DNA from: Candidatus Parcubacteria bacterium
GTDB lineage: Bacteria; Patescibacteriota; Minisyncoccia; UBA6257; 2-01-FULL-56-20
Direction of reading: 5' to 3'
Assembly: GCA_027355945.1 (NCBI GenBank)
Contig: DAIEHA010000002.1
Span: 15,071-79,070 of the forward strand
Length of the DNA stretch: 64,000 bases
Positions 3,661 through 30,363 of this stretch are shown piece by piece. How positions within the stretch are numbered: the first letter of the stretch is position 1; every line of letters starts with the position of its first letter. The position numbers were made by a program, and so were the translations under genes. The notes below the pieces were generated by a model. That model did not search any database. It was not told where the DNA came from and was given only the letters and a program-made list of their open reading frames with translations.

Positions 3661-3664
3661 CAAA

Positions 3665-8609: not shown

Positions 8610-8669
8610 TGCATCCGCATCCCTTCCGAGAGGCGCATGGATCGTTCCTGTTGCGGAACGATCTTTGTG

Positions 8670-9755: not shown

Positions 9756-9953
9756 GGTTCTATACTACCATACCGCATATGCGATTTTGCGGGGTGCGAG
9801 AGATGTGATTCTGCGTTATACGTTGATGCGCGTACCTTGAGATGCGTACCTTCCATGCCGTGCATGGGAATGCCATCGACGCGCATGCCCGAGGATTTCT
9901 ATGGAAAAGCCGATCGGCCTGGAGTATACTCCCACACAGAAAGGAGGCACGCC

Positions 9954-10667: not shown

Positions 10668-10702
10668 GGGTGTTTTTTATGCGAAAGTCCCGCGTATGCC
10701 GG

Positions 10703-11575: not shown

Positions 11576-11802
11576 ATCGTATGTGTATCGGTGCGAAGGA
11601 AGGTGATGCGATTCTCTCGCCGACCTACGCGGGACATATGCTTATGGTAGTCTCGCAGAGTGCAAAGTCAAATAATCGTACTCATAAGGATACAAGGAAG
11701 GAACTTCGCCTTGATCGGCGCGCAACCTTTTAATCGCAATGCGCTCTGCGGATGATATCGCACGGCTCTTTTCCTTTGAAAACGATCACGATCTTTTATA
11801 TG

Positions 11803-11836
11803 AAAAAACGGCGATCGCGTTGTGAGCAAATCGCCG
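11803..11836 (-). terminator. Rho-independent terminator for the PDZ-protein gene
   Basis: Stem CGGCGA...TCGCCG with a T-run on the minus strand, immediately 3' of the stop at 11867. Confidence 0.4.
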
Positions 11837-11866
11837 CCGATGATGACGCATCTTCGAAAGATCCCG

Positions 11867-12262
11867 TTAGTCGACGGGGATCTCCAGGAAGTGCAGGCGC
11901 CTTCTCCGGAAGGAATATGCAATGGATCTGCCGCTCCTGTCGATGGTGATATTGGTCAGCGTGCCTTCCCGACCGCTTATCAGGTTTCTGAGCCGAGCAG
12001 CTTTCTGCTCCGAGGGCGCAATGATGGCGACCCCGTCCACTTCAAGGATCCTGTCCCCAGCTTCGATGATGCCCGCAGCCGGAGTGTTGGGCTGGACCTT
12101 GGTTACGAAGAGGCCGTATCCATGGTCAACCGGACGAATATCGATGAAGACACCGATGCCCATCTGATCGAGCAGGCCGACTTTCGCAGCAACGAGGATC
12201 AAGGGTATTGCGATGTACGCAAGTACGCATGCGCCAATGATATACGGAACTGCGCTGTTCAT
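11867..12262 (-). CDS. PDZ-domain membrane protein
   Basis: ORF 11867..12370. The internal start MNSAVPYII follows AAAGGGG. TM helix, then a PDZ-like GLFVTKVQPNTPAAGIIEAGDRILEVDGVAI segment. Confidence 0.6.
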   Translation of the reverse strand: MNSAVPYIIGACVLAYIAIPLILVAAKVGLLDQMGIGVFIDIRPVDHGYGLFVTKVQPNTPAAGIIEAGDRILEVDGVAIIAPSEQKAARLRNLISGREGTLTNITIDRSGRSIAYSFRRRRLHFLEIPVD

Positions 12263-12559
12263 GAGATCCCCTTTCTTTGGGTTGCGATTTTTCCGAGGCT
12301 TCGGGAAGCATAGCAATGTTTTTCTTGTTTGAAAAGCCGTCAATGTCGGCAAAATAGGCGTTCGTATCATATCCGCACCTTTATCCGCAGATGGCGATCC
12401 GCGCCCTCCTTCTCGGCGAACGAAGCGTCGGGCGCAACCATATCCTCGGCAGCACCGCTCGTCGCGACCGGACCGCTCGCGCCATAAGTACGGTCCATGA
12501 ATGGGAGGTTTTTACTCGCAGAGAATGCGGAAGATATAAAGGGATTGAGAGTGCGGTAT

Positions 12560-12583
12560 GCTCAAAACCCAACAAGGGGTGCC
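12560..12583. repeat. Direct repeat copy of the tRNA-His 3' end plus trailer (left copy)
   Basis: gctcaaaacccaacaaggggtgcc matches 24629..24653 gctcaaaatccaacaggggggtgcc (2 mismatches, 1 indel), same orientation. Confidence 0.6.
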
Positions 12584-12616
12584 CGGGTGGAGGAAGTCAG
12601 GACCTGTTTCAGAGAG
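12577..12616. repeat. Conserved intergenic motif, copy A (GGGTGCC-N3-GTGGAGGAAG-YCRGGAC-YTGTY)
   Basis: Aligns with copies at 13201..13240 and 14316..14354. All lie between consecutive minus-strand genes. Confidence 0.55.
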
Positions 12617-12617
12617 T

Positions 12618-13073
12618 TTAGCGCAATTGTTCCCAATATCCTTTTTCCCTAACCTTCGCTTCTATTTTCGCTTTCAGTACTGTGATATCCATAGAATCCG
12701 GAGACGGAGATGCCTCCTGTTCTGCGAGAGATGCCCGAAGAGAATCAATTTCTTTTTCAAGCGCTTCAAATTTATTACGCCGGGATGCGTCGCGATCCTC
12801 CCTCTCTTTACGAGACGCCAACCATTGATTGACTTCGAGATCCGTTTCAAGTGCTTTTTCGTGCGCGACATCAACTGGGGAGATTTTTCTCTCGAAGAGC
12901 TTTCCGGAGAGTGCTCTATCGAGAAATCCGCTGCCGTTCTTGAGATCGGCACGGAATTTGAATTCCTCATCGGATTCTTTGCGTGAACGCTGCATGCGGG
13001 CTTGCCAGGACTCCTCGCTTTCGTTGGTATGTTTCCAACTTTCCGATCCGCCCATAGGAAAATTTTGGGACAT
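12618..13073 (-). CDS. Hypothetical charged coiled-coil protein
   Basis: 151 aa, E/K/R-rich, no TM. Codon pattern consistent with coding. Confidence 0.45.
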   Translation of the reverse strand: MSQNFPMGGSESWKHTNESEESWQARMQRSRKESDEEFKFRADLKNGSGFLDRALSGKLFERKISPVDVAHEKALETDLEVNQWLASRKEREDRDASRRNKFEALEKEIDSLRASLAEQEASPSPDSMDITVLKAKIEAKVREKGYWEQLR

Positions 13074-13200
13074 AATAAAATCATATCATAAGGTCAAACT
13101 TCCTTTAGGGATATATCAAATCAGCCCCATAAAATTTATCCAAAAAATCGCTGGATCAGAGGGGTGTGCCCGAACCATCGGTTCAAATAAGAACCACTTT

Positions 13201-13240
13201 GGGTGCCTTAGTGGAGGAAGCCGGGACTTGTCTGATGAGT
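13201..13240. repeat. Conserved intergenic motif, copy B
   Basis: GGGTGCCTTAGTGGAGGAAGCCGGGACTTGTCTGATGAG; same orientation and core as copies A and C. Confidence 0.55.
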
Positions 13241-13273
13241 GGATGACGAAAAGGAGGACCTCAAGCAGGAGTT

Positions 13274-14194
13274 CTATGGGGTGATGCTAAACGGAGAGCT
13301 GAATGCGTTTGTAGCGCCATAGCCAACCACCACTTCATAGTTATTACCAGGGGGAACATTGGACGGCACTGTCCAGAGATAATTTCCTACATAGCTCCCC
13401 GTCGATGCCGGAGCATCGCTCACTATTCCGTATTGGTCGCCACTCGACGCATTTATGAGATTGATCGAAACAGTGGTCAGGCCGGAGGAGTTCCATGAGA
13501 TTCTTTCCTTTTCCCCCACCCTCCATAGCGACCCCTGGATCGGCGAGACTATCTGGATCGAGGCCTTTGATTGTGACGCATTCTTTGTGGAACCGGAGGG
13601 CGTTGTTACCGCAGGGAGGGTTGTCGAAGAAGAGGTGGCAATACTCGGTAGGATACCTCCCGAACTCGTTGTGTTTGTGGAAGATGTCGCGAGGGGATTC
13701 GCATATTCTTGAGCGATTTTTTGCTCTTGTTGCTGTGCGTATTGATTTTGTTGTCCAGTTACATAGAAACTTATCGCAAAATAAAGGGCGCACAGAACGA
13801 ATGTCGCTATGATTTTGAAGGCAACACTACTGCCGAGACGATCGGAAAAATCATCATGATTTTTCTCCGGTGGCAACGGATCGTCGCCGTATTGATTTGG
13901 GCCCGCTGTCCCAGACCGAAGGAGAAGGCCCAGAAGGAGATAGACATTGAAGACAGGGACGAGCATGGCGAGCACATACAAGCCTGATTTCCCGAGGTCG
14001 TGGAAGCGTCGGAAGGTTATAAAGATCGTAAAAATAAAAACGACGATATAAAAAAGGGATGCAACAAGCCCCGCTACAATAAAATTGGGAATAAGAACGG
14101 AAGAAATCAAATAAATACCGCCTGTAGCAACAACGGCCAATGCGACGCTCCAAATAAGGAAACGCAAACGGCCGATTCGACCTCCAATTTCCAT
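13274..14194 (-). CDS. DUF805-like membrane protein with Ser/Thr-rich linker and C-terminal extracytoplasmic beta-sandwich-like domain
   Basis: 306 aa. N-terminal RRFHDLGKSGLYVLAMLVP resembles the DUF805 (YhaH-like) family. Several TM helices, an S/T tract, and a C-terminal IQIVSPIQGSLWRVGE...YEVVVGYG domain. Confidence 0.55.
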   Translation of the reverse strand: MEIGGRIGRLRFLIWSVALAVVATGGIYLISSVLIPNFIVAGLVASLFYIVVFIFTIFITFRRFHDLGKSGLYVLAMLVPVFNVYLLLGLLLRSGTAGPNQYGDDPLPPEKNHDDFSDRLGSSVAFKIIATFVLCALYFAISFYVTGQQNQYAQQQEQKIAQEYANPLATSSTNTTSSGGILPSIATSSSTTLPAVTTPSGSTKNASQSKASIQIVSPIQGSLWRVGEKERISWNSSGLTTVSINLINASSGDQYGIVSDAPASTGSYVGNYLWTVPSNVPPGNNYEVVVGYGATNAFSSPFSITP

Positions 14195-14315
14195 GTTTTT
14201 ATTATAGCAAACGCCCTCGCCGAAAATTTTGCCCTACGCCGCATTTTTACTTATCGGTCCAAACTTGCATCAGGGTCCTCCCTGTAAGTCCCCTACAACC
14301 CATCGAATTTTGGGT

Positions 14316-14354
14316 GGGTGCCTTGATGAAGGAGGTCAGAACCTGTTCGGTGAG
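14316..14354. repeat. Conserved intergenic motif, copy C
   Basis: GGGTGCCTTGATGAAGGAGGTCAGAACCTGTTCGGTGAG. Confidence 0.5.
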
Positions 14355-14377
14355 ATAAATCCCTCTTTTGGAGAAAA

Positions 14378-14406
14378 TAAAATACCCGCCAAGCGGGTAT
14401 TTTATT
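14378..14406. terminator. Bidirectional rho-independent terminator
   Basis: AAAATACCCGC-CAA-GCGGGTATTTT perfect hairpin flanked by A and T runs, directly 3' of the stop of the minus gene at 14412. Confidence 0.55.
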
Positions 14407-14411
14407 GCTTA

Positions 14412-14753
14412 TTACTTTGTGCTCGTTGCTTGCGGGGCATTTTGATAATATCCTCGCATCATGCCGCCGGGCCCGTAATAATAGGTCGGGGCTCCCGCAG
14501 ACTGGGTGGGAGCCGCGTTTTGGCTCTGATAGTAATATCCACCCATCATCGGCATATAGCCGTAGGGATAAGGAGAGCCGCCATAATAGCCATTTTCCAT
14601 CATGCCGGGCCACATGCCATATCCGTAATAGCCAAGGGTAGTTTTGAACTCACCCACTTTGACGCCCATACAGAAGACCACGATCAAGATAAGAATGCCG
14701 AGGACCCAGCGAAGCAATTTATGATGACCGTCTTCGTGCGTATGTTCTTCCAT
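14412..14753 (-). CDS. Small Met/Tyr/Gly-rich membrane-anchored protein with His-rich N-terminus (possible metal-binding)
   Basis: ORF to 14873. The internal start MEEHTHEDGHHKLL precedes one TM, then a GYYGYGMWPGMMENGYYGG...MPMMGGYYY tail. Divergent from csoR. Confidence 0.5.
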   Translation of the reverse strand: MEEHTHEDGHHKLLRWVLGILILIVVFCMGVKVGEFKTTLGYYGYGMWPGMMENGYYGGSPYPYGYMPMMGGYYYQSQNAAPTQSAGAPTYYYGPGGMMRGYYQNAPQATSTK

Positions 14754-14810
14754 AGTAATTAATTTTTTGTTGGCGACCTTTATCCTAAGACGACAGTACA
14801 TTATGTATAA

Positions 14811-14825
14811 TACCCCTATAGGGTA
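14811..14825. promoter_or_regulatory. CsoR-type operator box 1 (TACCC-N5-GGGTA)
   Basis: Inverted repeat TACCCCTATAGGGTA overlapping a TATAAT hexamer (14806..14811). Resembles the B. subtilis CsoR box. Confidence 0.55.
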
Positions 14826-14843
14826 TACTGTCAAATACTCAAT

Positions 14844-14873
14844 TTGACACGCGATACCCAGTGGGGGTATCAT
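14844..14873 (+). promoter_or_regulatory. csoR promoter: TTGACA-N18-TATCAT with operator box 2 (14855..14869) in the spacer
   Basis: TTGACA at 14844..14849, TACCCAGTGGGGGTA inverted repeat, TATCAT at 14868..14873. Identical architecture to 21275..21304. Confidence 0.6.
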
Positions 14874-14879
14874 AAGGAT

Positions 14880-15149
14880 ATGGATAAGGTAATAAAGAAA
14901 AAAGCCTTACGAAGGCTTCAGATCGTAAAGGGGCAGATCAAAGGCCTCGAAAAAATGATCGACGATGAAAAGTATTGCATCGACGTTATTACACAATCAT
15001 CCGCTATCAAGCAGGCTCTTTCTGGCGTTGAAGATCTTTTATTAGAGAACCATCTTGCTACACATGTGGCGATGCAAATGAAGAGCGGAGAAAGTAAGAA
15101 GGCGACCGCAGAGATGGTAAAAGTATATAAGCTATCAAAGCGAATATAA
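14880..15149 (+). CDS. csoR: CsoR/RcnR-family (DUF156) metal-sensing transcriptional repressor
   Basis: RLQIVKGQIKGLEKMIDDEKYCIDVITQSSAIKQALSGVEDLLLENHLATHV matches the CsoR-family core with conserved Cys and His ligands. ORF track start is 14844; 14880 chosen (near-leaderless from the TATCAT -10). Confidence 0.8.
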   Translation: MDKVIKKKALRRLQIVKGQIKGLEKMIDDEKYCIDVITQSSAIKQALSGVEDLLLENHLATHVAMQMKSGESKKATAEMVKVYKLSKRI

Positions 15150-15150
15150 T

Positions 15151-15564
15151 ATGAGATCAGTGCTTGCGATCGTGATTATGGTGGCTGCGATCTTCGCTCT
15201 CGTGGCGGGTAGTTTCGCCATGGTCAATATGGGATCCGGCAGTCATACAAACTGTCTTGCGGCGATTCCCGGGAGTCCAAAATGTCTTGGAAGGATGGAT
15301 CTGTTTCAATTCGCAATAACGCATATTAGTACACTCCTCGGCATATCGCTCGGGATCGTCAGTCCAATAACAGCTTTTCTCTTGGCTGCGTTCGCAGTGC
15401 TCGTATGGATCGCAGTTTCTAATTCGTTCAACTTACTGTTGGGTTCCTTGGGCTATTCAAGGGTTTTTATTGAGGCAGAAATAGGTAGCGCTCGTAAGCA
15501 ACACCACTGGATCTCCCTTCTTGAGAAACGCGATCCGTCTTCGTCTTGCGCTATGAACGTCTAA
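15151..15564 (+). CDS. Hypothetical membrane protein co-transcribed with csoR
   Basis: Starts 1 nt after the csoR stop. 137 aa, three TM helices, a Cys pair (HTNCLAAIPGSPKC), and C-terminal SSSCAMNV. Confidence 0.5.
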   Translation: MRSVLAIVIMVAAIFALVAGSFAMVNMGSGSHTNCLAAIPGSPKCLGRMDLFQFAITHISTLLGISLGIVSPITAFLLAAFAVLVWIAVSNSFNLLLGSLGYSRVFIEAEIGSARKQHHWISLLEKRDPSSSCAMNV

Positions 15565-15599
15565 GCGAATCAATCTCGCCGCGTCGTTTATAGCGCCCC

Positions 15600-15622
15600 A
15601 AACCGCATCCCTGCGGTTTTTT
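15600..15622 (+). terminator. Rho-independent terminator
   Basis: AACCGCA-TCCC-TGCGGTT followed by TTTTT. Confidence 0.55.
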
Positions 15623-15822
15623 CGTTGCACATAAATTCATCGGTCTATTGCCATGCATAAAAGCAAAAAGGTCGTTATCAGTAAAACAGAGCCATTCTTC
15701 ATCATCCTGACACTTGTCGGTGCGTTCGCGTTGTTTACATAGCAAACGTTGCGGATGGCGCAATATCACATGAGTGCGCCCCCTCTCCAGTAAAGCACTA
15801 CCACTATAATCTCCCAATCCAA

Positions 15823-16314
15823 ATGAATAGAAAACCAACGTTAGAAGAGTTCCTTAAAAAAATTGAATCAACAAAAGAAAAGGCGGGCGTTGATCTGTCG
15901 ACGGCTGAAGATCTGAGCATCGCAGTCATGAACCTCATAAGCCTCGAAGAGCATTTTTTCTTCACGGGAATAAAAACGAAAAAAGATGAGTACTTCGACA
16001 CAGTGCAAGAGATCCGGGAGTTGCGTAAACAATTTCTCACGCAATTAATGCCTAAGCACGAAGGGGAAACGTGGTGCATCTCAAAACATCTTCTTTCCGC
16101 CACGATGCGCCTTATTGAAGTGGGCAATAAGTTGCAATCGGAAGGCATAAAAGAAAAAGCGAAGCAAACATTTGAAGGAGCCTATAAGGTCTACTCGATC
16201 TTTTGGGCCCTCAAATTGGATCTCGTTAATGGCAGCGAGATTAAGGAAGCGGCAAGGGGCGGCTCCGACTTAGAAACAATTATCGCTAAGATGGCCGATT
16301 GCTGCAATGAATAG
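15823..16314 (+). CDS. Hypothetical cytoplasmic protein ending in DCCNE
   Basis: 163 aa, helical and charged, no TM. C-terminal vicinal cysteines. Confidence 0.45.
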   Translation: MNRKPTLEEFLKKIESTKEKAGVDLSTAEDLSIAVMNLISLEEHFFFTGIKTKKDEYFDTVQEIRELRKQFLTQLMPKHEGETWCISKHLLSATMRLIEVGNKLQSEGIKEKAKQTFEGAYKVYSIFWALKLDLVNGSEIKEAARGGSDLETIIAKMADCCNE

Positions 16315-16331
16315 TAACAACGATAAATAAA

Positions 16332-17297
16332 ATGGAACACGAAACACATCATCACGAACAAGAAACAGAGTTAATGGAAGAGCTTCTTCCGGAGACGGTG
16401 GTAAAAAGCCATAAAAAAGACTTGTTCTTACCACTCAGTATTCTTGCAGTAGCACTGCTTATCGCTTCAGCATTCGTCTATCTTGGCAATCAGAGAACGG
16501 CATCGGGGCGCAGCACTCCTATACAAAATATCTCAGCCGCTACATTGCAGGAAAAGGTAATTCCGGCAAACGGCGTGATATTGCCGGTTCGCTGGGGCGA
16601 TCTCGGGAGGCAGCTTGTATCGGCGGGTGTCATTAATGAGCCGCAATTCCTCGCGCTCTATGCGCAGCGCGGGGGGTTATCGCCCGACATGAAGGCGCTT
16701 CTTGATAATGCAGATAATGGGAATCTCATTATTACATTGCAAAATTCCGGCACCATATTAAATCTTTTATGGGCGCTTGGCCTTGGGAACAATAATCCAA
16801 TCCTTACGAGCGGGCCCATGGAGAATCCTCAATACGGAGGCGCAAAGAACTTTGCTTCGACTGGCGGTTGGACGCTTTCAGTCGGCAATGCGATGAACCA
16901 TTATAGCGCTCATTCGTTCGTAACGCTTACCGCCGATCAGCAAGCACGTGTGGTGCGTGTCGCACAAAACATCTATCGCCCGTGCTGCGGAAACTCCACG
17001 TTATTCCCGGATTGCAATCATGGCATGGCGATGCTTGGACTCCTTGAGCTCATGGCATCGCAGGGCGTTTCGGAAGCGGACATGTACAAGGCCGCGCTCG
17101 CGGTGAATTCGTATTGGTTCCCTGATACCTATCTCACACTTGCAACCTACTTCCAAAGCCAGGGCGTCGATTGGAGTGCTGTCGACTCAAAGACGGTGCT
17201 TGGTGCTGGATATTCAAGTGCTCAAGGATACCAGCAGATAGTAAATAAAATAACTCCAGTGCAGGCGCAATCGTCGGGCGGCTGCGGGGTGCAATAA
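16332..17297 (+). CDS. Membrane-anchored extracytoplasmic protein with His-rich N-terminus and C-terminal SGGCGVQ tail
   Basis: 321 aa. MEHETHHHEQETE N-terminus, single TM, Cys-rich PCCGNSTLFPDCNHG motif. The C-terminal tail is shared with the next ORF. Confidence 0.55.
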   Translation: MEHETHHHEQETELMEELLPETVVKSHKKDLFLPLSILAVALLIASAFVYLGNQRTASGRSTPIQNISAATLQEKVIPANGVILPVRWGDLGRQLVSAGVINEPQFLALYAQRGGLSPDMKALLDNADNGNLIITLQNSGTILNLLWALGLGNNNPILTSGPMENPQYGGAKNFASTGGWTLSVGNAMNHYSAHSFVTLTADQQARVVRVAQNIYRPCCGNSTLFPDCNHGMAMLGLLELMASQGVSEADMYKAALAVNSYWFPDTYLTLATYFQSQGVDWSAVDSKTVLGAGYSSAQGYQQIVNKITPVQAQSSGGCGVQ

Positions 17298-17313
17298 CCA
17301 AAATTGAAATCTT

Positions 17314-17505
17314 ATGAAATCAACGAATGACAATTTCTGGTTATTCATAAGCATCGGATTGTTTGTAATCATCGTCGGAACTGCGGGAGCTTATGCATTT
17401 CGGTCATTCAGTACGAATGCCGTATCACAAGAGAACGCCACTGTCGTTGCGCCATCACAAACCCAAACACCTTCATCCGGCCAAAGCGGCGGATGTGGGG
17501 TCTAA
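17314..17505 (+). CDS. Small membrane-anchored peptide ending in SGGCGV
   Basis: 63 aa with one TM (FWLFISIGLFVIIVGTAGAYAF). Its C-terminus QSGGCGV parallels the upstream protein's SSGGCGVQ although encoded by different codons. Confidence 0.45.
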   Translation: MKSTNDNFWLFISIGLFVIIVGTAGAYAFRSFSTNAVSQENATVVAPSQTQTPSSGQSGGCGV

Positions 17506-17510
17506 TCGCT

Positions 17511-18374
17511 ATGGAAACAATAATCAGTACATCACTCATTGCGGCATTTATCGCAGGCATCGCGGCCTTGTTCGCGCCATGCTGCGTTACGGTGCTTCTG
17601 CCCGCATACTTCGGTTCGATCTTTCGCACGAGGCGGAAGGTGTTCCTCATGACATTCATTTTCTTCCTCGGCATCTTGACCGTATTCCTTCCGTTAGGAC
17701 TCGGTTTCTCGATGCTTGGACAGGTGTTCAGTCGTTATCATCGCGAGATCTTCACGGTCATTGGTATGGTACTTTTCGCTTTGGGAATCTCACTTCTCTT
17801 AGGAAAGAGGCTCCCTATGCCGAAATCAATGCGCCTCAAACCGGAACTCACTGGAAATGAGAACGCTGGATCAGTGTATCTTCTTGGCATCTTCTCCGGC
17901 ATCGCAACCACTTGTTGTGCGCCGGTACTCGCGGGAGCGCTCGCGCTTTCGGTGTTGCCGGGTTCGTTCATCTGGGGAATTATCTACACACTCGCCTACG
18001 TGCTCGGCATGGTGACCCCACTCTTTGTCCTTGCGGCAGCACTTGACCGGACCAAGATGTCCGAACGTCTCCTTGGCGTGCGGAAGCCGTTGGAATTCAC
18101 GCTATTCGGAAAGGCCATTCGCATGAGGATCTCCGACCTCCTTGCGGGACTGACTTTCTCGATCATGGGAGCACTCACGCTCTACTGGGCATCGATGAAT
18201 CAGGTTGCCGTGCATTCGATGTTGCAAGTGAATATCAACATCTATCTCACGCAGCTGAATAATTTCCTTACCCCCTATATCGGGTGGGTGCCGCAATACG
18301 CGTGGGCGGTCATGTTCGTCGGACTCCTCGTAGCGCTCGTGGTGCTTGCTCTCAAGCAATTCAAAAAGGACTGA
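17511..18374 (+). CDS. CcdA/DsbD-superfamily thiol-disulfide transporter-like membrane protein with vicinal Cys pairs
   Basis: FIAGIAALFAPCCVTVLLPAYF parallels the CcdA TM1 motif (SPC-x3-LLP-x-Y). GIATTCCAPVLAGAL parallels the TM4 motif. Both carry CC instead of a single Cys, as in MerT TM1. ORF track start is 17493. Confidence 0.7.
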   Translation: METIISTSLIAAFIAGIAALFAPCCVTVLLPAYFGSIFRTRRKVFLMTFIFFLGILTVFLPLGLGFSMLGQVFSRYHREIFTVIGMVLFALGISLLLGKRLPMPKSMRLKPELTGNENAGSVYLLGIFSGIATTCCAPVLAGALALSVLPGSFIWGIIYTLAYVLGMVTPLFVLAAALDRTKMSERLLGVRKPLEFTLFGKAIRMRISDLLAGLTFSIMGALTLYWASMNQVAVHSMLQVNINIYLTQLNNFLTPYIGWVPQYAWAVMFVGLLVALVVLALKQFKKD

Positions 18375-18392
18375 TTAAAAAAACATAAAACC

Positions 18393-19013
18393 ATGAAAAA
18401 AAATACATCAAACGGTACTATGGCGGTTAAAGTGATCGGCATTTTTGCTATCTCGATATTTATCCTCGGAGGTATCGCTCTACTCAGTTATGAGAACAGC
18501 GACGCAGCACCTCAGGCGGGCGCCACAGGGTCTGGTAGCTTCGGCAGTGCACTCATCGGCAAGCCCGCGCCGCAATTTTCGCTGAAAGATCGCAACGAAG
18601 TCACATACACCCCAGATAGTTTGAAAGGAAAGAATGTGATTCTTTTCTTTAACGAGGGAATTATGTGCTATCCCGCATGCTGGAATCAGATGGTCGCGCT
18701 CGCGACGGATCCTCGGTTTCAAACATCCGATACGATCGCGCTTTCCATCGTGATCGACTCTCCGGATCAATGGCAGTCGGCGATCCAGAAAATGCCGGAC
18801 CTTGGGAAGGCAACCGTTCTCTTTGACACCGATAAATCCATTTCGCAGGAATACGGGATGCTCACCGCACTATCTTCGATGCATTACGGTTCCTACCCAG
18901 GTCATTCGTTCGTGATCCTCGACAAACAAGGGATCGTCCGCTTCGTCTATGATGACCCAGCTATGGGCATTGATGACGATCGTATCGCGGCCGATCTCCA
19001 AACGTTGAAATAG
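18393..19013 (+). CDS. SCO1/SenC-like copper-binding thioredoxin-fold protein
   Basis: Signal anchor. KNVILFFNEGIMCYPACW gives a CxxxC motif after a beta strand, as in SCO proteins. Downstream HSFVILDKQGIVRFVY matches the conserved SCO His region. Confidence 0.65.
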   Translation: MKKNTSNGTMAVKVIGIFAISIFILGGIALLSYENSDAAPQAGATGSGSFGSALIGKPAPQFSLKDRNEVTYTPDSLKGKNVILFFNEGIMCYPACWNQMVALATDPRFQTSDTIALSIVIDSPDQWQSAIQKMPDLGKATVLFDTDKSISQEYGMLTALSSMHYGSYPGHSFVILDKQGIVRFVYDDPAMGIDDDRIAADLQTLK

Positions 19014-19014
19014 C

Positions 19015-19464
19015 ATGCATAGACCGATCACGAAATCCTTTATCGGAGGGTCTATTGCGACGGGCACGCTCATCGCGGCATATTTCGCAATCGTTTCCCT
19101 CATATCGGGATTTGCATTCGCCGGAAGTCAGTTTGTGGAATTCTGGTTCTACTTCGTGGGATTGGCACTCGGCTTCGGCATTCAGATCGGGCTTTACATC
19201 TATCTGAAGCAACTGGTCCGTGGCGCAAGCGGCGGGCCAGTGGTGGCGGTGACGGGGATGACCTCGACCGCCGCCATGGTTGCGTGCTGCACCCACTATC
19301 TCGTGAACATTCTGCCAATTCTTGGAATAAGCGCCTTCGCCTCATTTGTCGGCGAATATCAGGTTCAGTTCTTTTGGGTTGGTATCGCATTCAATCTTGT
19401 GGGTATCGTCTATATTGCAAGTCGAGTTATAAAAGTCAGGGGGAATATGCAGCACATTGCATGA
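19015..19464 (+). CDS. Hypothetical four-TM membrane protein, possibly the N-terminal half of a split ICMT-like methyltransferase
   Basis: 149 aa, hydrophobic. Ends 4 nt into the next ORF, in a different frame. Contains ACCTHY. Confidence 0.45.
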   Translation: MHRPITKSFIGGSIATGTLIAAYFAIVSLISGFAFAGSQFVEFWFYFVGLALGFGIQIGLYIYLKQLVRGASGGPVVAVTGMTSTAAMVACCTHYLVNILPILGISAFASFVGEYQVQFFWVGIAFNLVGIVYIASRVIKVRGNMQHIA

Positions 19465-19748
19465 ACAAATCAAATCTTGCATGGACTGTCCTCTGTGAAG
19501 CACAGAAAGAACATACGCTTGCAATCGCGGGGCCGTATGCCCGCATTCGTCATCCACAATACATGGCATTCATACTTGTTATGCTTGGGTTCCTGTTTCA
19601 GTGGCCGACCATTCTCACGCTTGCTATGTTTCCGGTACTTCTGTGGATGTATGTGCATCTCGCGCGAACCGAAGAGAGAGAAGCGCAAGCGATCTTTGGC
19701 GTGGAATGGAATGCATATGCGGCGCAAACACCCGCGTTCATTCCCTAA
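19461..19748 (+). CDS. Isoprenylcysteine carboxyl methyltransferase (ICMT/PEMT) family C-terminal catalytic fragment
   Basis: AGPYARIRHPQYMAF (the RHPxY motif) and EEREAQAIFGVEWNAYAAQTPAFIP (C-terminal EE...FG..Y..Y motif). Only ~95 aa from the ATG at 19461. Confidence 0.5.
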   Translation: MNKSNLAWTVLCEAQKEHTLAIAGPYARIRHPQYMAFILVMLGFLFQWPTILTLAMFPVLLWMYVHLARTEEREAQAIFGVEWNAYAAQTPAFIP

Positions 19749-19790
19749 TGGAAACGAAACAATAAATCATTGAAATAAAAATCAACACCT

Positions 19791-19966
19791 ATGTTCAGAA
19801 TCTTTAAGAAAAAGTGTCCGATTTGCAGGATGGCACTCGAAGAAGGAAAACAATATCCTGAGGAATTCGGTAAACAATTCTGTTCGGAAAGATGCAAGAC
19901 ACAGTATCAAGAATTAACAAATAAAAAGAAGCAATCGCAACATTCCAGCCATGGTGGGTGTTGTTA
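19791..19966 (+). CDS. YHS/TRASH-domain small metal-binding protein ending in GGCC
   Basis: Hand translation: MFRIFKKKCPICRMALEEGKQYPEEFGKQFCSERCKTQYQELTNKKKQSQHSSHGGCC. C-x2-C...C-x3-C matches the TRASH/YHS pattern. Shorter than 60 aa, so absent from the ORF track. Confidence 0.55.
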
Positions 19967-19979
19967 AGAGTTCAACGCT

Positions 19980-21278
19980 ATGCGGTTATCGTTTCTTTTG
20001 ATCGGACTCGGATTTGTCGCGGTTTTGGCCGTCGGGGGTATTTCGAGTTCTCGTGCAGTAGCTGCAACGGTGGTAGCTACGAGTACTGGCGGCAATGCTT
20101 CGCAAGTCCAGATCAATACGGATAACCAACAGATCGCAGACCTCAACCAAAAAATAGCATCCTACCAAGCGCAACTTCGGAAAGTAGGTGCGGATAAGAA
20201 AACGCTCCAAGCGGCTATTCACGCGCTCGATTTGCAACGCAGCAACGCACAAGTGCAGGTTGCCGTTACCCAACTGCAGATCAACGCAACCCAGGCCCAG
20301 ATCAAACAGTTGGGCGGAGAGATATTGGGAGCGAAGCAGACGATAGCAGGGGATCAGGCGGCGCTCGGAGAATATCTTCAAAGTCTTCAAAAAGCCGACG
20401 ATAAGCCGTTGATCGTGCAGATGCTTTCATCGGGCGGTCTTGTTCAAGCATGGGATGATATTAATGCGACAGTAAAGATGCAAACCGCCGTCCAAAATCA
20501 AATGCAGGCGCTTCGTGTCCAGGAAGACAGCCTTGCCAACTCGCAGACAGTTTCAAAACAGAAACAGGAAGCACTCACATCGCAAAAACAGGCATTGGCA
20601 TCACGGCAGCAATCGCTTATCGCGACGGAACAATCTAAAAGTCAGCTGCTCGCCGAAACCAAGTCGCAAGAATCTGCTTATCAAAAATTGCTTGCCGCGG
20701 CGCACGCGGAGCTCAGTAGCTTCTCGACGTTTACAGAGAACGCGGGCGGATCAAAACTGCTTGCCAATCAGACCAGTTGCGACTCGTGGGGCTGCTATTA
20801 TAATCAGCGTGATTCGGCATGGGGCGCTACTCCTCTTGATGGGACAAAATATACGCTTGCACGCGCAGGGTGCCTCATTGCATCCGTGGCGATGGTGCTC
20901 ACGCATTACGGGTATAAGGATGTGACGCCTGCGACCATCAACTCGAACCCCGATAACTTCGCGGGGTATTCACCCGATCTGCTGCTCGCGTCGATCGACG
21001 TTGACGGTGTGACCGTTATGCGAAAGGCCATCAGGGTGAAAGGTGCCACTGCCGCACGAAAAATTTCAGTTATTGATGCGATGCTTGCGACTGGCCATCC
21101 GGCAATCGTCGGCATGAATGCCCTCGGCGGCACGCATTTTGTCGTACTCACGAGCGGGAGCAATGGTGATTACCTCATGCGCGATCCGTATGTAGCGAAT
21201 GGTAACGGTATCAGCTTCACCTCCTATTATTCATTGAAGGAGATATATAGCATTGCGAAGATCGTGATCGGGAGTTGA
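19980..21278 (+). CDS. Secreted coiled-coil protein with C-terminal C39-like (papain-fold) cysteine peptidase domain
   Basis: Signal peptide, ~250 aa Q/A-rich coiled coil, then SCDSWGCYYNQ...AGCLIASVAMVLTHYGY...GGTHFVVL resembling Peptidase_C39_2 with its Cys and His. PcsB-like architecture. Confidence 0.55.
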   Translation: MRLSFLLIGLGFVAVLAVGGISSSRAVAATVVATSTGGNASQVQINTDNQQIADLNQKIASYQAQLRKVGADKKTLQAAIHALDLQRSNAQVQVAVTQLQINATQAQIKQLGGEILGAKQTIAGDQAALGEYLQSLQKADDKPLIVQMLSSGGLVQAWDDINATVKMQTAVQNQMQALRVQEDSLANSQTVSKQKQEALTSQKQALASRQQSLIATEQSKSQLLAETKSQESAYQKLLAAAHAELSSFSTFTENAGGSKLLANQTSCDSWGCYYNQRDSAWGATPLDGTKYTLARAGCLIASVAMVLTHYGYKDVTPATINSNPDNFAGYSPDLLLASIDVDGVTVMRKAIRVKGATAARKISVIDAMLATGHPAIVGMNALGGTHFVVLTSGSNGDYLMRDPYVANGNGISFTSYYSLKEIYSIAKIVIGS

Positions 21279-21304
21279 CAGTAAATACCCCCTAGGGGTA
21301 TCAT
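21275..21304 (+). promoter_or_regulatory. ATPase promoter: TTGACA-N18-TATCAT with CsoR-type box TACCCCCTAGGGGTA (21286..21300) in the spacer
   Basis: Same hexamers, same 18 nt spacer and same box offset as the csoR promoter. ATG lies 13 nt after the -10. Confidence 0.6.
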
Positions 21305-21316
21305 TAAGAAAATAAT

Positions 21317-23689
21317 ATGAGCCACGACCATATGCATCACAACGAAGGGGCTGTTCGGCAACCGAATTGTGCCTGCGGCAAGAAGTGTTCCGGGTGCTCT
21401 GCGGAAAAACTAGCTGTTAATTGTGGTTGTGATATGGAAGCAAAACAGTTTGAATCCGATATGGATCATTCTTGCTGCCACAATACGCATAATAAAAAGA
21501 CGAGCGCTCCGGCCGTCGCAATGAGTGCGGAGGGAGGATCATATTATACCTGCCCAATGCATCCGGACGTGAGATCGAAAGTGCCCGGTAAGTGTCCGGG
21601 GTGCGGCATGGACCTTATCCTTAAAAAGGGCGAAGTTGCTTCGCAAGGTGATCATGCAAATCATGATATGCAGGCCATGAGCCATATGGATCATGAGGCG
21701 GCGATGACGAGCCCGCAATTGGCGAAGCAGATGGAGCGGGATATGCGTCGCCGATTTTGGATTTCATTCATACTCTCGATCCCGATCTTTCTTTATTCGC
21801 CGGTCGGCACAGCAGTGTTCAAGGTCGCGCTTTGGAGCCCCATCCCAATCAATTGGCTATTATTGATCCTCACCACGCCGATCGTATTTTGGACGGGCTC
21901 GATCTTCATCACAGGGACATACTATTCCCTGAAAGCAAAAAAGCTGAACATGGCGGTGCTTATTGCGACAGGGGTGTTGGCCGCCTATCTTTTTAGCGTT
22001 CTTCTCACCGTTATCGGAAGCCCCGATACTTTTTATGAGGCAGCAGCACTTTTGGTTACCTTCGTGCTCTTTGGCCATTGGATGGAGATGAAGTCTCGGC
22101 GTGGCACTTCGGAATCTTTGCGGGCCCTATTTGATCTTGTGCCGCCAAAGGCAACGGTTATCCGCGATGGTAGGGAGATCTCGATCCCAAGCGCCGAGAT
22201 TATGCATGATGACATTGTAGTAGTGCGGCCCGGCGACAAATTACCGGTGGACGGCGTTGTGACCGAAGGCGAGAGCGCGGTTGACGAGTCGCTCGTTACG
22301 GGAGAATCAATCCCAGTCACAAAAATGATCGGCGACAAAGTCACCGGTGGATCGGTCAACCAAACAGGGACCCTTAAGTTCAAGGCGACGCAGGTGGGTG
22401 CGGAAACCGTCCTCGCGCAGATCATTAAGCTCGTTGAGACGGCCCAGAATTCCAAAGCGCCGGGTCAGCGCCTTGCCGATCGCGCTGCTGGCTGGCTCGT
22501 TATCTTGGCCGTTGGTTCGGGTATCGTGACATTTCTTGGCTGGTATTTTTGGGGCCACACAGGATTCATCACTGCGCTGACATTCGCCATTTCAGCAGTG
22601 GTGATCGCGTGTCCGGATGCTTTGGGGCTTGCGACGCCGACCGCCGTGGCGGTGGGTACTGGTATCGGGGCAAAACATAATATCCTCATTAAAGATGCCG
22701 CGACACTAGAGAACACTTCCAAGTTGAATGCGGTTGTGCTCGATAAAACAGGGACGTTGACGGAAGGGAAGCCAAAGGTAACCGATATTGTTCCACTGAA
22801 TGGTTTTAACGAAGAAGATGTCTTGCGGTATGAGGCGAGCATTGAAAACAATTCCAATCATCCGGTTGCAAAGGCTATCGTGGACGAGGCCGCCAAGCGT
22901 GGCGTTTCTCTCGTGGAGTCTTCGCAATTCGAATCTATCCCTGGCTATGGCATAAAGGCGACCATCCTTGGCAAGCGGGTACTCGCGGGGAATGAACGAT
23001 TGATGACAACGAATGGCGTGGATGTGGTGTCGGCGAGGATGACCATCGACAAGCTTGCGAACGAAGGGAAGACGATCAGCCTGCTTTCCATCGATGAGAA
23101 GATCGCAGGGGTTACCGCCGTCGCCGATACCGTGCGCCCAAGCGCGAAACAGGCGATCAAACGACTCCAAGACCTCGGTATCGAAGTGGCGATGATAACG
23201 GGTGATCATAAAGTCGTCGCGGAAGCGGTCGGAAAGGAGCTTGGCATCAATCGTGTTTTTGCAGAAGTGCTCCCTAAAGATAAAGCGAGTTATGTGAAGA
23301 AACTGCAGGACGAAGGAAAATTTGTTGCGATGGTGGGCGATGGTGTGAATGACGCTCCGGCGTTGGCGCAATCGGACATCGGTATCGCGATCGGCGCGGG
23401 TACTGATGTAGCGATCGAGACCGGTAACATAGTGCTTATGAAATCCGATCCGAACGATATTGCCTCGGCAATCATCCTGAGCAAAGCAACGGTTGCTAAA
23501 ATGAAGCAGAATCTTTTCTGGGCGGCAATCTATAACGTGTCCGCGATTCCCGTTGCGGCAGGCGTATTCGCAGGGATCGGTATCACGCTCCGTCCGGAGA
23601 TTTCGGCGCTCCTAATGTCCGCGTCATCTATTATTGTTGCCACCAATGCGGTGCTCTTAAAGAGAGTCGAAAGTAAGCTTAAAAGCTAA
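21317..23689 (+). CDS. copA: Heavy-metal (Cu+-type) P1B ATPase with N-terminal His/Cys-rich metal-binding region
   Basis: DKTGT phosphorylation site, GDGVNDAP hinge, TM7 YN and TM8 MSASS (P1B-1 Cu+ signature). TM6 motif is CPD rather than CPC. N-terminal [10 protein letters not shown]...GKCPGCGM metal-binding domain plus His-rich stretches. Confidence 0.92.
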
Positions 23690-23723
23690 AAGGTCGCGAG
23701 GTAAATAATTAATTACTATTACA

Positions 23724-23972
23724 TTGCTTTCACTTAAACGGTATGGATGGCTCTGCGTGCTTGGTATCGAAGTGGCCTATGTTGGCTGCATGATCTATCG
23801 CTTTTTCCTGAACGGCGCGGCTCTTAGCTTGCATGCATCACTCTTTGAACTCCTTCCAGGATTTTCATGGGGAATTGGCGGCATGGTCATCGGTGCAATA
23901 GACCTCTTTATCTTTGCATGGATTTTTGCGTGGTACATGGTCTGGATGCACAATACGAGCATCCAGAAATAG
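23724..23972 (+). CDS. Small hydrophobic protein, hypothetical
   Basis: 82 aa, two TM segments. Weak. Confidence 0.3.
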   Translation: MLSLKRYGWLCVLGIEVAYVGCMIYRFFLNGAALSLHASLFELLPGFSWGIGGMVIGAIDLFIFAWIFAWYMVWMHNTSIQK

Positions 23973-24025
23973 TGGTGGATTTCTCCCACATGTCCACACT
24001 TATAAAATGCCCTTTCGGGGGCATT

Positions 24026-24496
24026 TTAATTTGCAGGCACTATTTTTTCATTACGCCAATTTCTAATACATAAATCTCCCCATCCGTGGCCGAACCACAG
24101 GGCGAGGAATACAAGAACATAAATGACTGCCGCTCCGATGTCCGTCGACCCCGCAGTGTACGGGCCACCGAATCCTTCGGCGGTGGACCAGATGACGAGA
24201 CTCATTGCGATACCACCCCACGTTGCGACGCGTGACGCGATGCCGAAGATGAGCGCAAGAGCAATTGCTGTTTCTGCAGTTGCAACGAGTAGTGCAAAAA
24301 GCCCCGGGTTTACTCCTATTATATGAATCCAAAGTGTGATCCAATTTTTAACGAGCAGTGGCTGGCCGTCGAGGTTCCCCGAGAGATAACTCGTAAAGTT
24401 TGTGAAGAAATCTGGCTGCCATTTGAAATAAGCGTCAATTCCCCAAATGGCGCCGAAAGCGATTCGGAGCCATGCGAACTTACGCTGGTCGGTCAT
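24026..24496 (-). CDS. DoxX-like small membrane protein (inferred)
   Basis: 156 aa, four TM, Trp-rich. Family assignment is tentative. Confidence 0.4.
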   Translation of the reverse strand: MTDQRKFAWLRIAFGAIWGIDAYFKWQPDFFTNFTSYLSGNLDGQPLLVKNWITLWIHIIGVNPGLFALLVATAETAIALALIFGIASRVATWGGIAMSLVIWSTAEGFGGPYTAGSTDIGAAVIYVLVFLALWFGHGWGDLCIRNWRNEKIVPAN

Positions 24497-24628
24497 GATT
24501 TTATTTTACCTTATCCGGAGGTGCATTAAAATCAATATGCATTCATGCTTAAACCAGCCCATTATTTTAAATGAGAGGCTTGGACCTGCAAAAACGCAGA
24601 TGATATAAAGGAATCAAGAACGTTGTAC

Positions 24629-24653
24629 GCTCAAAATCCAACAGGGGGGTGCC
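24629..24653. repeat. tRNA-His 3' end plus trailer; right copy of the direct repeat
   Basis: Matches 12560..12583. Confidence 0.6.
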
Positions 24654-24719
24654 TAACGGGAATCGAACCCGTATCATCGGAGCCACAATCCGAGGCTCTA
24701 CCATTAAGCTATAGGCACC
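24648..24719 (-). tRNA. tRNA-His (GUG) with encoded G-1
   Basis: Manual fold: G-1 plus acceptor GTGCCTA/TAGGCAC, D stem GCTT/GAGC, anticodon stem TCGGA/TCCGA, loop TTGTGGC (anticodon GTG), T arm ACGGG-TTCGATT-CCCGT, discriminator C. Confidence 0.85.
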
Positions 24720-24813: not shown

Positions 24814-26064
24814 ATGATCTATCCTGAGCTGGAAAAAGAGGATTCGCAGGTCTATGAGATCGTGAAGCGGGAGGAGCGGCGGCAAAAGGAGGGTATCGAG
24901 CTCATTGCGAGCGAGAATTATGCCTCTCGCGCGGTCCTCGAAGCGATGGGGTCCGTGCTTACGAATAAATACAGTGAAGGGTATCCCGGAAAGCGGTATT
25001 ACGGCGGGAACGGAGTGATCGACGAGGCGGAAGCACTTGCCATTTCCCGGGCAAAGGAGCTTTTTGGCGCTGAACACGTGAACGTGCAACCGCTTTCCGG
25101 TTCTCCCGCGAATCTCGCCGTCTATATGGCGCTTCTCCAGCCAGGCGACAAAGTGCTGGGATTCTCGCTCGATCAGGGCGGACATCTTTCCCATGGCCAT
25201 CCACTGAACTTCTCCGGGAAACTCTATTCCATCATCCCGTACTTCGTGGATAAAGAACGGGAGGTCATCGATATGGACGAAGTGGAATCGATCGCACTCC
25301 GCGAAAAGCCGAAGATGATCCTTGCGGGATTCTCCGCATATTCGCGCTCCCTTGATTGGAAGCGCTTCCGGGAGATCGCAGACGCATGCGGCGCATATCT
25401 CTTCGCGGACATCGCCCACATCGCAGGGCTCATTGCGGGCAAACAACTTGAAAACCCCGTGCCATATTGTGACGTGGTTTCCACGACGACGCATAAGACC
25501 CTCCGGGGTCCTCGCGGTGCGATGATCATGTCAAAGGAGCGCTTTGCGGCTGCGATCGATAAAGCGGTGTTCCCGGGCGTGCAGGGAGGTCCTCATGACC
25601 ATATCACCGCGGCAAAAGCGGTGGCATACGGAGAGGCGCTCAGGCCGGAGTTCGCCGAGTATGCCGCGCACGTGATCGCGAACGCCCGTGCGCTCGCCGC
25701 GGCGCTCGCCGCCAAAGGGTACCGCATCATATCCGGAGGTACGGACAACCATCTCATGCTTGTGGATGTGGCGGGGAGCAAAGGCATCACCGGAAAAGAG
25801 GCGGAAAAAGCGCTGGAACAGGTGGGCATATCCGTCAATAAAAATATGATCCCATTCGATCCCCGAAAACCTCTCGATCCCTCGGGTATCCGTCTCGGCA
25901 CCCCCGCACTCACTACCCGCGGATGCGGCGAAGAGGATATGCGGACCGTCGCAAGCCTTATCGATGAGGCTCTTGCGGCACGCAATGACGATGCGGCGCT
26001 CGGCCGCATACAGGAAAAGGTCAGGGAGTTCGCGCTCAAGTTCCCCGTCCCGGGGATCGAGTGA
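24814..26064 (+). CDS. glyA: Serine hydroxymethyltransferase
   Basis: 416 aa. ELIASENY, TNKYSEGYPGKRYYGG and TTTHKTLRGPRG (PLP-lysine region) motifs. Confidence 0.95.
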   Translation: MIYPELEKEDSQVYEIVKREERRQKEGIELIASENYASRAVLEAMGSVLTNKYSEGYPGKRYYGGNGVIDEAEALAISRAKELFGAEHVNVQPLSGSPANLAVYMALLQPGDKVLGFSLDQGGHLSHGHPLNFSGKLYSIIPYFVDKEREVIDMDEVESIALREKPKMILAGFSAYSRSLDWKRFREIADACGAYLFADIAHIAGLIAGKQLENPVPYCDVVSTTTHKTLRGPRGAMIMSKERFAAAIDKAVFPGVQGGPHDHITAAKAVAYGEALRPEFAEYAAHVIANARALAAALAAKGYRIISGGTDNHLMLVDVAGSKGITGKEAEKALEQVGISVNKNMIPFDPRKPLDPSGIRLGTPALTTRGCGEEDMRTVASLIDEALAARNDDAALGRIQEKVREFALKFPVPGIE

Positions 26065-30264: not shown

Positions 30265-30363
30265 ACGGTGCGTATAATATATTATATAATTTTTTGATTC
30301 ATATATTCTATACGCATGGCAAAACAGCCCTACGCTCGGGATTTTCCATTGGGGAAAACGATG

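Follow-up and report, generated by a model that had tools for sequence, protein, structure and literature searches.

The DNA analyzed here, a stretch of 64,000 nucleotides (nt) of contig DAIEHA010000002.1 from a Candidatus Parcubacteria bacterium (the window), carries a copper and thiol-redox gene cluster next to a tRNA-His gene; our subject is how that cluster is bounded and subdivided, and how it may have come to lie there. tRNA-His is on the minus strand, so that its 3′ end (...TTAGGCACCC) and its trailer face lower coordinates; on its other side, glyA, which encodes serine hydroxymethyltransferase (SHMT), lies 95 nt away. The insertion adjoins an intact tRNA-His, with foreign DNA beginning directly past the GGCACCC of the tRNA end. 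A first-pass annotation, made from the sequence of the window alone, had read the ~12-kb segment as a candidate integrated island without an integrase, bracketed by direct repeats of the tRNA-His 3′ end. Its description of the content agrees with our Pfam and NCBIfam searches: a CsoR repressor, a Cu-ATPase, and thiol/redox and Cys-rich membrane proteins are enclosed by the repeats (Table 1), together with several Cys/His/Met-rich proteins that lack a family assignment. Below we describe the repeat at the two boundaries (R84), a second repeat (D1) that divides the segment, and the corresponding loci of related genomes.

Table 1. Features of the tRNA-His locus and of the recombinase gene in the window (GC3, GC content at third codon positions; L173, locus of a related genome; right arm, see text)
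Feature	Position	Strand	Basis or remark
PDZ-domain gene, outside left repeat	11867-12262	-	Pfam; GC3 0.68
R84L, distal copy, left boundary of foreign DNA	12500-12583	-	local alignment; composition switch
D1a	12577-12617	-	ends GGGCACCC; repeat search; nhmmer E = 5e-10
Module 3 cargo, 145-aa charged coiled-coil-like protein	12618-13055	-	GC3 0.47
Degenerate fourth site	13087-13165	-	GGGCACACC, then right-arm copy (AGCGATTTTTTGGATAAATTTTATGGGG...CCCTAAAGGAAG)
D1b	13201-13238	-	ends AAGGCACCC; E = 9e-8
Module 2 cargo, 306-aa membrane protein, DUF805 and Kre9/KNH-like Ig domain	13274-14194	-	Pfam; GC3 0.50
D1c, distal end of copper module	14316-14357	-	ends AAGGCACCC; E = 1e-10
Module 1, copper/thiol-redox module, 10.3 kb	14358-24569	mixed	Pfam and NCBIfam; no internal D1
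His/Met/Tyr-rich 113-aa membrane protein	14412-14753	-	module 1
CsoR-type operators overlapping sigma-70-like promoters	14811-14825, 14855-14869, 21286-21300		pattern TACCC-N-GGGGTA
csoR/ricR-like repressor	14880-15149	+	Pfam/NCBIfam
137-aa protein	15151-15564		module 1
163-aa protein	15823-16314		module 1
321-aa protein	16332-17297		module 1
DsbD-type membrane protein (DsbD_TM)	17493-18374		Pfam/NCBIfam
AhpC/redoxin	18393-19013		Pfam/NCBIfam
149-aa protein	19015-19464		module 1
ICMT-like protein	19461-19748		Pfam/NCBIfam
C39-like peptidase	19980-21278		Pfam/NCBIfam
Cu P1B ATPase	21332-23689		passes TIGR01511 at 576 bits (cutoff 397)
DUF5676 membrane protein	23724-23972		Pfam/NCBIfam
DoxX-like membrane protein	24026-24496	-	Pfam/NCBIfam
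R84R, tRNA-proximal copy (last 9 nt of tRNA and ~76 nt of trailer)	24570-24653	-	local alignment; 100% identical in L173
tRNA-His(gtg)	24645-24719	-	ARAGORN; Rfam tRNA, 70 bits
glyA (SHMT), conserved right flank, anchor of all comparisons	24814-26064	+	Pfam
XerC/XerD-type tyrosine recombinase, only recombinase in 64 kb	44182-45162	-	Pfam, NCBIfam; GC3 0.71

The match of 24 to 25 nt on which the island had been proposed (12560 to 12583 versus 24629 to 24653) is present as described, and a gapped local alignment extends it to an 84-nt direct repeat, R84, whose copies are ~74% identical and align with two gaps (indels). In the direction of the tRNA, the repeat starts at GGCACCCC, the tRNA-His 3′ end, and runs on through ~76 nt of trailer; the tRNA itself contributes only its last 8 to 9 nt. 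The alignment scores 56, compared to a maximum of 26 elsewhere in the window and 33 for shuffled queries, and is thus significant against a background of 26 to 33. A profile built from the pair found no third copy in the window or in ~170 other loci; R84 is therefore not a dispersed repeat, and the shorter similarity does not represent a common genome-wide one. The 84-nt repeat is real, unique, and non-random, and the tRNA-His 3′ end is the proximal junction of the island and its attB-like anchor. We also considered R84 as a duplicated promoter or terminator, but promoter and terminator scans gave no signal conserved in both copies.

Base composition changes at the same two places. Regional GC is 0.48 to 0.49 over positions 12584 to 24644, versus 0.55 and 0.58 in the flanks; GC3 is 0.46 to 0.65 in island genes, versus 0.63 to 0.80 in 14 flanking genes; and the tetranucleotide correlation to the rest of the window drops to 0.45 to 0.68 only in the chunks at ~12 to 24 kb, while elsewhere it is 0.86 to 0.96. 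At the left edge, the PDZ-domain gene outside is host-like (GC3 0.68) and the first gene inside is not (0.47); the composition boundaries therefore coincide with the repeat copies. By all three measures, then, inside differs from outside, with a switch at both repeats.

The island is divided by a second repeat. D1 is a motif of ~40 nt that ends in (A/G)GGCACCC and occurs three times in the island, always on the tRNA strand; its last 8 to 9 nt (AGGCACCC) are identical to the tRNA-His end. D1a stands directly past the stop codon of the first cassette gene and is fused to R84L, which begins at the GGCACCC end of D1a; D1b lies 36 nt past the stop codon of the DUF805 gene; and D1c comes after a terminator-like hairpin (14376 to 14406). 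Relaxed scans of the window yielded no D1 beyond these three copies. There is, in addition, a degenerate fourth site: in the clade, many D1 copies, like many tRNA ends, are succeeded by a right arm of 65 nt (CGGCGATTTTTAGATAGATTTTATAGG...ACCCCTAACGGGAAATAGAACC), and a right-arm profile trained without the window matches positions 13087 to 13154 (E = 7e-8). Starting from the tRNA, the island is thus divided into the 10.3-kb copper module, a 1.1-kb DUF805 cassette, a 46-nt remnant with the degenerate site, and a 0.6-kb cassette for the 145-aa protein, which has no match in Pfam or NCBIfam. The three cassette-like small genes of the first-pass annotation are confirmed, and D1 follows each of them. 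Its view of an integrated island stands, with a refinement: the island is a composite of three to four modules split by D1 rather than one unit.

With glyA as the anchor, a scan of a genome collection gave as its best hit a distant Doudnabacteria metagenome-assembled genome (MAG; SHMT 76% identical, 35% GC, no synteny), while a metagenome scan together with a protein search gave relatives with SHMT 84 to 93% identical, from sources named Paceibacterota or Minisyncoccia (loci designated here by L numbers). A D1 profile found 16 copies in seven genomes: 3 in the window, 4 in L082, 2 each in L086, L171, L175, and L193, and 1 in L177. Every one of the 16 is on the tRNA-His strand, in variable DNA downstream of tRNA-His; none was found in the conserved flanks or in ~160 unrelated loci. 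All-against-all comparison of the variable regions showed that D1 is the only sequence they have in common (81 to 97% identity). Its subtypes are common to different genomes and are not homogenized within one genome; D1a is 94 to 97% identical to D1 copies of L171 and L175. The sites can be laid in register as a left arm, the core AGGCACC/C, and a right arm, with divergence setting in directly past GGCACC/C (at the slash); in L193, a right arm stands behind all three sites. D1 points the same way as the gene before it in 9 of 16 cases but is constant in orientation relative to the tRNA, so its polarity follows the tRNA and not the genes. In L086, 79 nt of tRNA trailer are duplicated past the distal D1 (score 98 versus 29); the layout of tRNA-trailer, modules, and D1-trailer-like copy is found in the window and, independently, in L086.

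Cargo is entirely different from genome to genome, and that of the relatives is of a kind typically seen on mobile modules: in L086, TrmB and KdpABCD; in L082, modules of 0.8 to 1.5 kb with a HepT/MNT toxin-antitoxin pair, SnoaL, ICMT, and other genes; and in L175, an insertion sequence (IS; rve). A literature search found no description of such arrays in the candidate phyla radiation (CPR).

D1 is conserved as sequence and not as a fold. An Rfam search returned the tRNA only and no family for D1. When eight sites were folded as single strands, only the L086 distal site gave a strong hairpin (z = -4.3, followed by a T-run), and the window sites folded no better than shuffles; an alignment fold of six composite sites reached -3.3 kcal/mol with 0 compensatory pairs. 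The lack of a fold, of covariation, and of an Rfam family, together with the tRNA-linked polarity, argues against a terminator or regulatory repeat and against a folded site of the attC type, and we rejected D1 as an attC-like or otherwise structured element. Two further candidate relationships were rejected: that of the D1 left arm to the tRNA-His T-arm as a diverged copy (similarity not above shuffles), and that of R84 to the clade-wide right arm, whose profile does not detect it. In three relatives (L082 9726 to 9775, L086 9740 to 9790, and L177 9735 to 9790), the trailer repeats the T-arm and acceptor strand of the tRNA itself in inverted form, which places the tRNA end at the center of a 40- to 50-nt imperfect palindrome; the window has none.

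Att-like sites also occur nearly back to back, in L175 (5399 to 5462) and in the window (13155 to 13238), with a module length of ~0 to 46 nt between them. Such pairs resemble what is left where modules have been deleted; a back-to-back pair of this kind is not the product expected of simple excision between direct sites.

The closest comparison is with L171, a 60-kb contig from the same samples and the same genus (SHMT 93% identical). Positions 2 to 3933 of L171 correspond to window positions 8325 to 11580, and L171 from 9816 onward corresponds to the window from 24628 onward, that is, to tRNA-His and ~17 nt of its trailer. Between these flanks, the 13 kb of the window are matched in L171 by 5.9 kb with unrelated genes, among them NUDIX, ATP-grasp, TPR, and CofD. 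The L171 interval includes two D1 copies, and D1, 94% identical to D1a, is the sole sequence that it shares with the window. The comparison of related genomes with and without the insert, by which the island was to be judged, thus came out in its favor: the flanks are kept and the content differs, by replacement and with no clean empty site. The PDZ-domain gene, despite its host-like composition, is missing in L171, whose synteny ends at window position 11580, and is therefore part of a wider variable zone (11581 to 24644). With R84, its uniqueness, the composition, and the replaced content of L171, the proposal of an integrated island at the tRNA-His 3′ end is supported. Within the syntenic left flank, L171 also has an extra AhpC/redoxin gene (2360 to 2962), where the window has only ~40 nt (~10680 to 10719).

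Close pairs of strains place the breakpoint. The SHMT protein of L173 is exactly that of L171, and the two loci are 99.65% identical across glyA and tRNA-His, yet they diverge immediately past ...TTAGGCACCCC. Similarly, L175 and L176 are 99.66% identical and their homology stops 4 nt beyond the tRNA. Downstream of its tRNA, L173 continues with the DNA of the window's island end (97.8% over 783 nt; 100% across R84R and the tRNA), whereas identity to the window is only ~83% on the side of glyA and folD. Taken at face value, this would mean that the island moved between lineages with a 17% core difference, with the switch at the tRNA. Two sets of contigs proved uninformative on variation: contig breaks at tRNA-His in L163 and L164 cannot be read as strain heterogeneity, as breaks occur throughout the region, and apparent structural variants (L166, L182, L184, and L185) are 100% collinear with the window and reflect gene-calling artefacts.

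As the first-pass annotation had noted, no recombinase lies inside the island: Pfam searches of its open reading frames (ORFs) gave neither a recombinase nor transfer genes, and a six-frame search of the window with serine, tyrosine, and DDE recombinases (phmmer, tblastn) agreed, finding only the Xer-type gene at 44182 to 45162. This is the nearest tyrosine recombinase that the annotation had pointed out beside tRNA-Leu. Its product can be aligned from end to end with XerC, XerD, and XerA models, while integron-integrase models cover no more than its last 70 residues, and the gene has host-like GC3 and sits among core genes. We rejected it as an integrase of the island, since there is no tRNA-Leu-end repeat, its GC3 is host-like, and it is not IntI; it is a housekeeping-type enzyme and a candidate for action in trans. 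A different enzyme is found in L194, in which a 542-aa large serine recombinase adjoins the tRNA-His 3′ end, its ORF reading through the antisense of the tRNA 3′ end; recombinase-bearing elements thus do target tRNA-His in this clade. In L194 (441 to 2080), tRNA-His is inverted and relocated beside ftsH, and with respect to glyA the variable segment as a whole appears to be inverted. Elsewhere, L190 (12401 to 16276; also L189, 13215 to 17090) has two to three large serine recombinase genes between a PhoH-like gene and tRNA-Pro/tRNA-Arg, which may be a second integration hotspot.

The reading that we favor, and consider probable, is an integrase-less array of attachment site (att)-bounded modules, accreted at the tRNA-His end by site-specific recombination served in trans. 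From the arrangement of the sequences we infer site-specific integration, and with it the recombination chemistry, the crossover position, the supply of the enzyme in trans, and the donor origin of one trailer. Positions 12584 to 24644 would then be horizontally acquired DNA, inserted at the 3′ end of tRNA-His and made up of three to four modules in tandem: the copper/thiol module of 10.3 kb under CsoR control, two cassettes of one gene each, and one remnant. Each module ends in D1. A recombinase encoded elsewhere would exchange strands within GGCACC/C; the attB-like partner would be the tRNA-His end and the attP-like partner a D1-type site carried by an incoming circular module, and repeated events would stack modules beside the tRNA. 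Recombination of the tRNA end with any distal D1 would excise one or several modules as a unit, and the excised circle would join D1 to the sequence behind the donor's tRNA. After integration, the trailer in R84R would be donor-derived and that in R84L the recipient's own; this would explain why the 84-nt copies are related yet 26% diverged.

Several observations count against this account. The R84 copies are only 74% identical and their longest exact core is ≤10 nt, and in four of the seven arrays the trailer is not duplicated within the available 10 kb. Neither an empty site (tRNA-His-R84L-PDZ) nor a circular junction was found; the exact PDZ protein occurs on nine contigs, among which there is no empty site and no island-free contig, and window-lineage contigs from at least six samples are all collinear, with no sign of current mobility. 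L173 is a 2.7-kb MAG contig on which 88 nt are identical in both lineages, so that a chimeric join is possible, and the existence of a sister strain of the window lineage makes transfer between lineages a weaker inference. A recombinase is absent from all seven D1 arrays (array loci only), the recombinase-bearing element of L194 lacks D1, and four pattern scans of viral and mobile genetic element contigs turned up no autonomous carrier of the att site. Finally, both D1 and the tRNA gene, 100% identical between lineages, could anchor homologous recombination.

Homologous exchange is indeed the main rival: the locus would be a hypervariable chromosomal one kept up by homologous recombination, such as might follow natural transformation, with tRNA-His/glyA, the left flank, or D1 as anchors, and D1 and its arms would be locus-specific intergenic regulatory repeats (terminator/promoter modules) and not recombination sites. 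The conserved flanks with content replaced rather than present or absent fit this explanation, as do the identity of tRNA-His between lineages, which makes it a good anchor, and the arrays without a recombinase; some D1 copies lie just past stop codons, right arms lie upstream of genes, and the L086 distal site has its strong hairpin and T-run (z = -4.3). However, D1 polarity is fixed relative to the tRNA and agrees with that of the gene before it in only 9 of 16 cases, neither a conserved fold nor covariation is seen, folding of the window sites does not surpass that of shuffles, and nothing in the promoter and terminator scans is conserved in both R84 copies. A regulatory repeat would have no reason to share the final 8 to 9 nt of the tRNA exactly at the point where strains diverge, and 40 nt at 75 to 97% identity make D1 a marginal RecA substrate. 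Homologous exchange is thus disfavored, by D1 polarity and by the shared tRNA terminus at the breakpoint, and we regard it as unlikely.

The other candidate worth weighing is a special case of the accretion in trans that we favor, and names its enzyme: the host XerC/D-type protein encoded at 44182 to 45162 would recombine the tRNA-His end with D1. Integrative mobile elements exploiting Xer (IMEX) and Acinetobacter pdif modules lack an integrase, rely on host Xer proteins, and carry small resistance, toxin-antitoxin, or transport cargo between repeated sites. The present modules, likewise small, repeat-bounded, and loaded with toxin-antitoxin, metal, and ion-transport genes, resemble them; a full-length host enzyme of the right type is present, chromosomal and host-like, as the only recombinase in 64 kb, and the tRNA ends of L082, L086, and L177 are central in imperfect palindromes, like Xer-type core sites. 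On the other hand, no dif-like 11-6-11 dyad is recognized in D1 or the window sites, which show neither dyad nor hairpin; pdif modules alternate in site orientation, whereas all sites here are direct; and the arrays are chromosomal by a tRNA, not at dif or on plasmids. Given also that our view covers 64 kb of a ~0.8-Mb genome, in which other recombinases may exist, it seems to us improbable that the Xer-type protein is the enzyme in question.

Integrons and clusters of attC sites lacking integron integrases (CALINs) are arrays of small cassettes, toxin-antitoxin genes included, that share a repeated recombination site, and integrase-less arrays exist. By analogy, D1 and its arm would together form an attC site, on which an IntI-type integrase would act in the form of folded single-stranded DNA, and attI would have its counterpart in the tRNA-His end. 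The three one-gene cassettes of the window, in one orientation and with a repeat after each, the toxin-antitoxin cassette of L082, and the long imperfect hairpin of the L086 distal site are reminiscent of such arrays. Against this, there is no IntI (integron-integrase models reach only the last 70 residues of the Xer-type protein) and R″/R′ boxes (RYYYAAC/GTTRRRY) are missing at conserved positions; a hairpin is lacking in the window sites, and no conserved pairs or covariation are seen. Conservation of sequence and not of structure is the opposite of attC; in addition, module genes occur in both orientations, modules reach 10 kb, the breakpoint falls mid-site and not at the 3′ end, and the array is anchored on a tRNA and not on attI. 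This explanation is largely refuted, and we think it very improbable. The view that there is no island, the repeat being chance or promoter-level similarity and the low-GC block native, is refuted: identity is modest (74%) and a -35/-10-like pair (TTGAGC...TTTATA) is kept in both R84 copies, but the alignment score is far above background, the hexamers are spaced 19 to 21 nt and were not called by the promoter scan, and composition, the synteny break, and the clade-wide architecture contradict it.

The closest analogue of the tRNA-His arrays is the ssrA island arrays of Dehalococcoides, from which they differ in target, core, module size, and host. The ssrA genomic islands (ssrA-GIs) are tandem, low-GC, synteny-breaking islands downstream of a single-copy small-RNA gene, each bounded by a direct repeat, 20 bp long, that matches the 3′ end of ssrA; an extra conserved motif just upstream of the repeat does not align with the gene, and about half of the islands lack an integration module and were interpreted as cis-mobilizable (McMurdie et al. 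2011, PMC3146451). Tandem modules, a 3′-end repeat at the boundaries, low GC, and broken synteny are all found here as well, and the 30-nt left arm of D1, whose similarity to the tRNA is not above chance, is a counterpart of the extra motif. The target, however, is tRNA-His and not transfer-messenger RNA, the shared repeat is 8 to 9 nt and not 20 bp, modules go down to one gene in 0.6 kb, the host is a Paceibacteria-like member of the CPR, and the CcrB-like large serine recombinase module that defines ssrA-GIs is present in 0 of 16 D1-bounded modules.

Cis-mobilizable elements (CIMEs), known together with site-specific accretion from the ICESt1/ICESt3 family of Streptococcus, keep attL and attR, have lost integration and transfer genes, lie in tandem at the 3′ end of the target, and are thought to be mobile via a related integrase in trans (reviewed in PMC5704250). 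Here too, every module is bounded by D1, R84, or the tRNA end and none has recombinase or transfer genes; in contrast to CIMEs, whose definition rests on adjacency to, or derivation from, an integrative and conjugative or mobilizable element of known integrase, none of the seven D1 arrays includes such a partner with a cognate integrase, D1 is a conserved clade-wide family rather than a set of decayed copies, and conjugation and mobilization genes are lacking. Classical tRNA-targeted islands and prophages are matched in the insertion at an intact tRNA 3′ end, the distal repeat, the atypical composition, the adaptive cargo, and flanks that are kept in L171 while content differs; they have a tyrosine integrase, however, while here none lies by the tRNA, the repeat is mostly trailer (76 of 84 nt) and not tRNA body, and the structure is composite.

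A more general proposal is that Paceibacteria-like CPR have a dedicated gene-capture platform, integron-like but differently built, with the tRNA-His 3′ end as its fixed entry, D1 and the 65-nt arm tagging modules that range from single genes of 0.6 kb to operons of 10 kb, and a chromosomal or other recombinase in trans (the lone Xer-type or a large serine enzyme) shuffling them within and between lineages. We offer this only tentatively. If it is correct, genomes of ~0.8 Mb would swap copper resistance, K+ uptake, and toxin-antitoxin genes in compact form. CPR/Patescibacteria have minimal genomes and their routes of gene acquisition are little known; the tRNA-His locus offers a concrete, repeatable route, with one hotspot, cargo (copper export, Kdp, toxin-antitoxin) that differs between close relatives, and a 40-nt signature that can be searched for in any assembly. 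D1 could also serve as a marker for the limits of acquired DNA in MAGs of the CPR, in which island finders that rely on integrases would fail. Were the sites recombined in trans, possibly by a housekeeping Xer protein, the result would be an economical, modular form of gene exchange between integron cassettes and genomic islands, and the ssrA-island paradigm would come to include a tRNA target and a phylum very different from that of Dehalococcoides.

The copper module appears to bring its own control. CsoR-type operators number three in the window, versus 0.04 expected, and all three are inside the island and on promoters; the copper regulon is therefore self-contained. In transmembrane helix 6 of the Cu P1B ATPase, CPD replaces the canonical CPC; the YN and MSASS motifs are kept, and the N terminus is unusually Cys/His-rich in addition to an HMBD (CPGC). 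The 113-aa membrane protein has a His-rich N terminus (MEEHTHEDGHH), a Tyr/Gly/Met/Pro-rich tail, and no family match; its gene is under a CsoR operator, divergent from csoR, and it may be a copper-binding protein. A diverged cluster of DoxX-like protein (286 aa), HMBD, and P-type ATPase genes is found by gatB, cmk, and tmk in a Paceibacteria-like MAG (L195, 3148 to 6564), with neither tRNA-His nor D1: the same gene set at a different chromosomal site, which we regard as weak evidence on mobility.

Two pilin-like proteins are encoded in the conserved flanks, a T4SS-pilin-like protein (42274 to 42669) and an N-methyl/Laminin_G_3 protein (28966 to 30408), and may bear on how this lineage takes up DNA. 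At 3589 to 3661, the window also has a tRNA-Ile with anticodon TAT (UAU), which is uncommon in bacteria, where AUA is usually read by a modified CAU tRNA.

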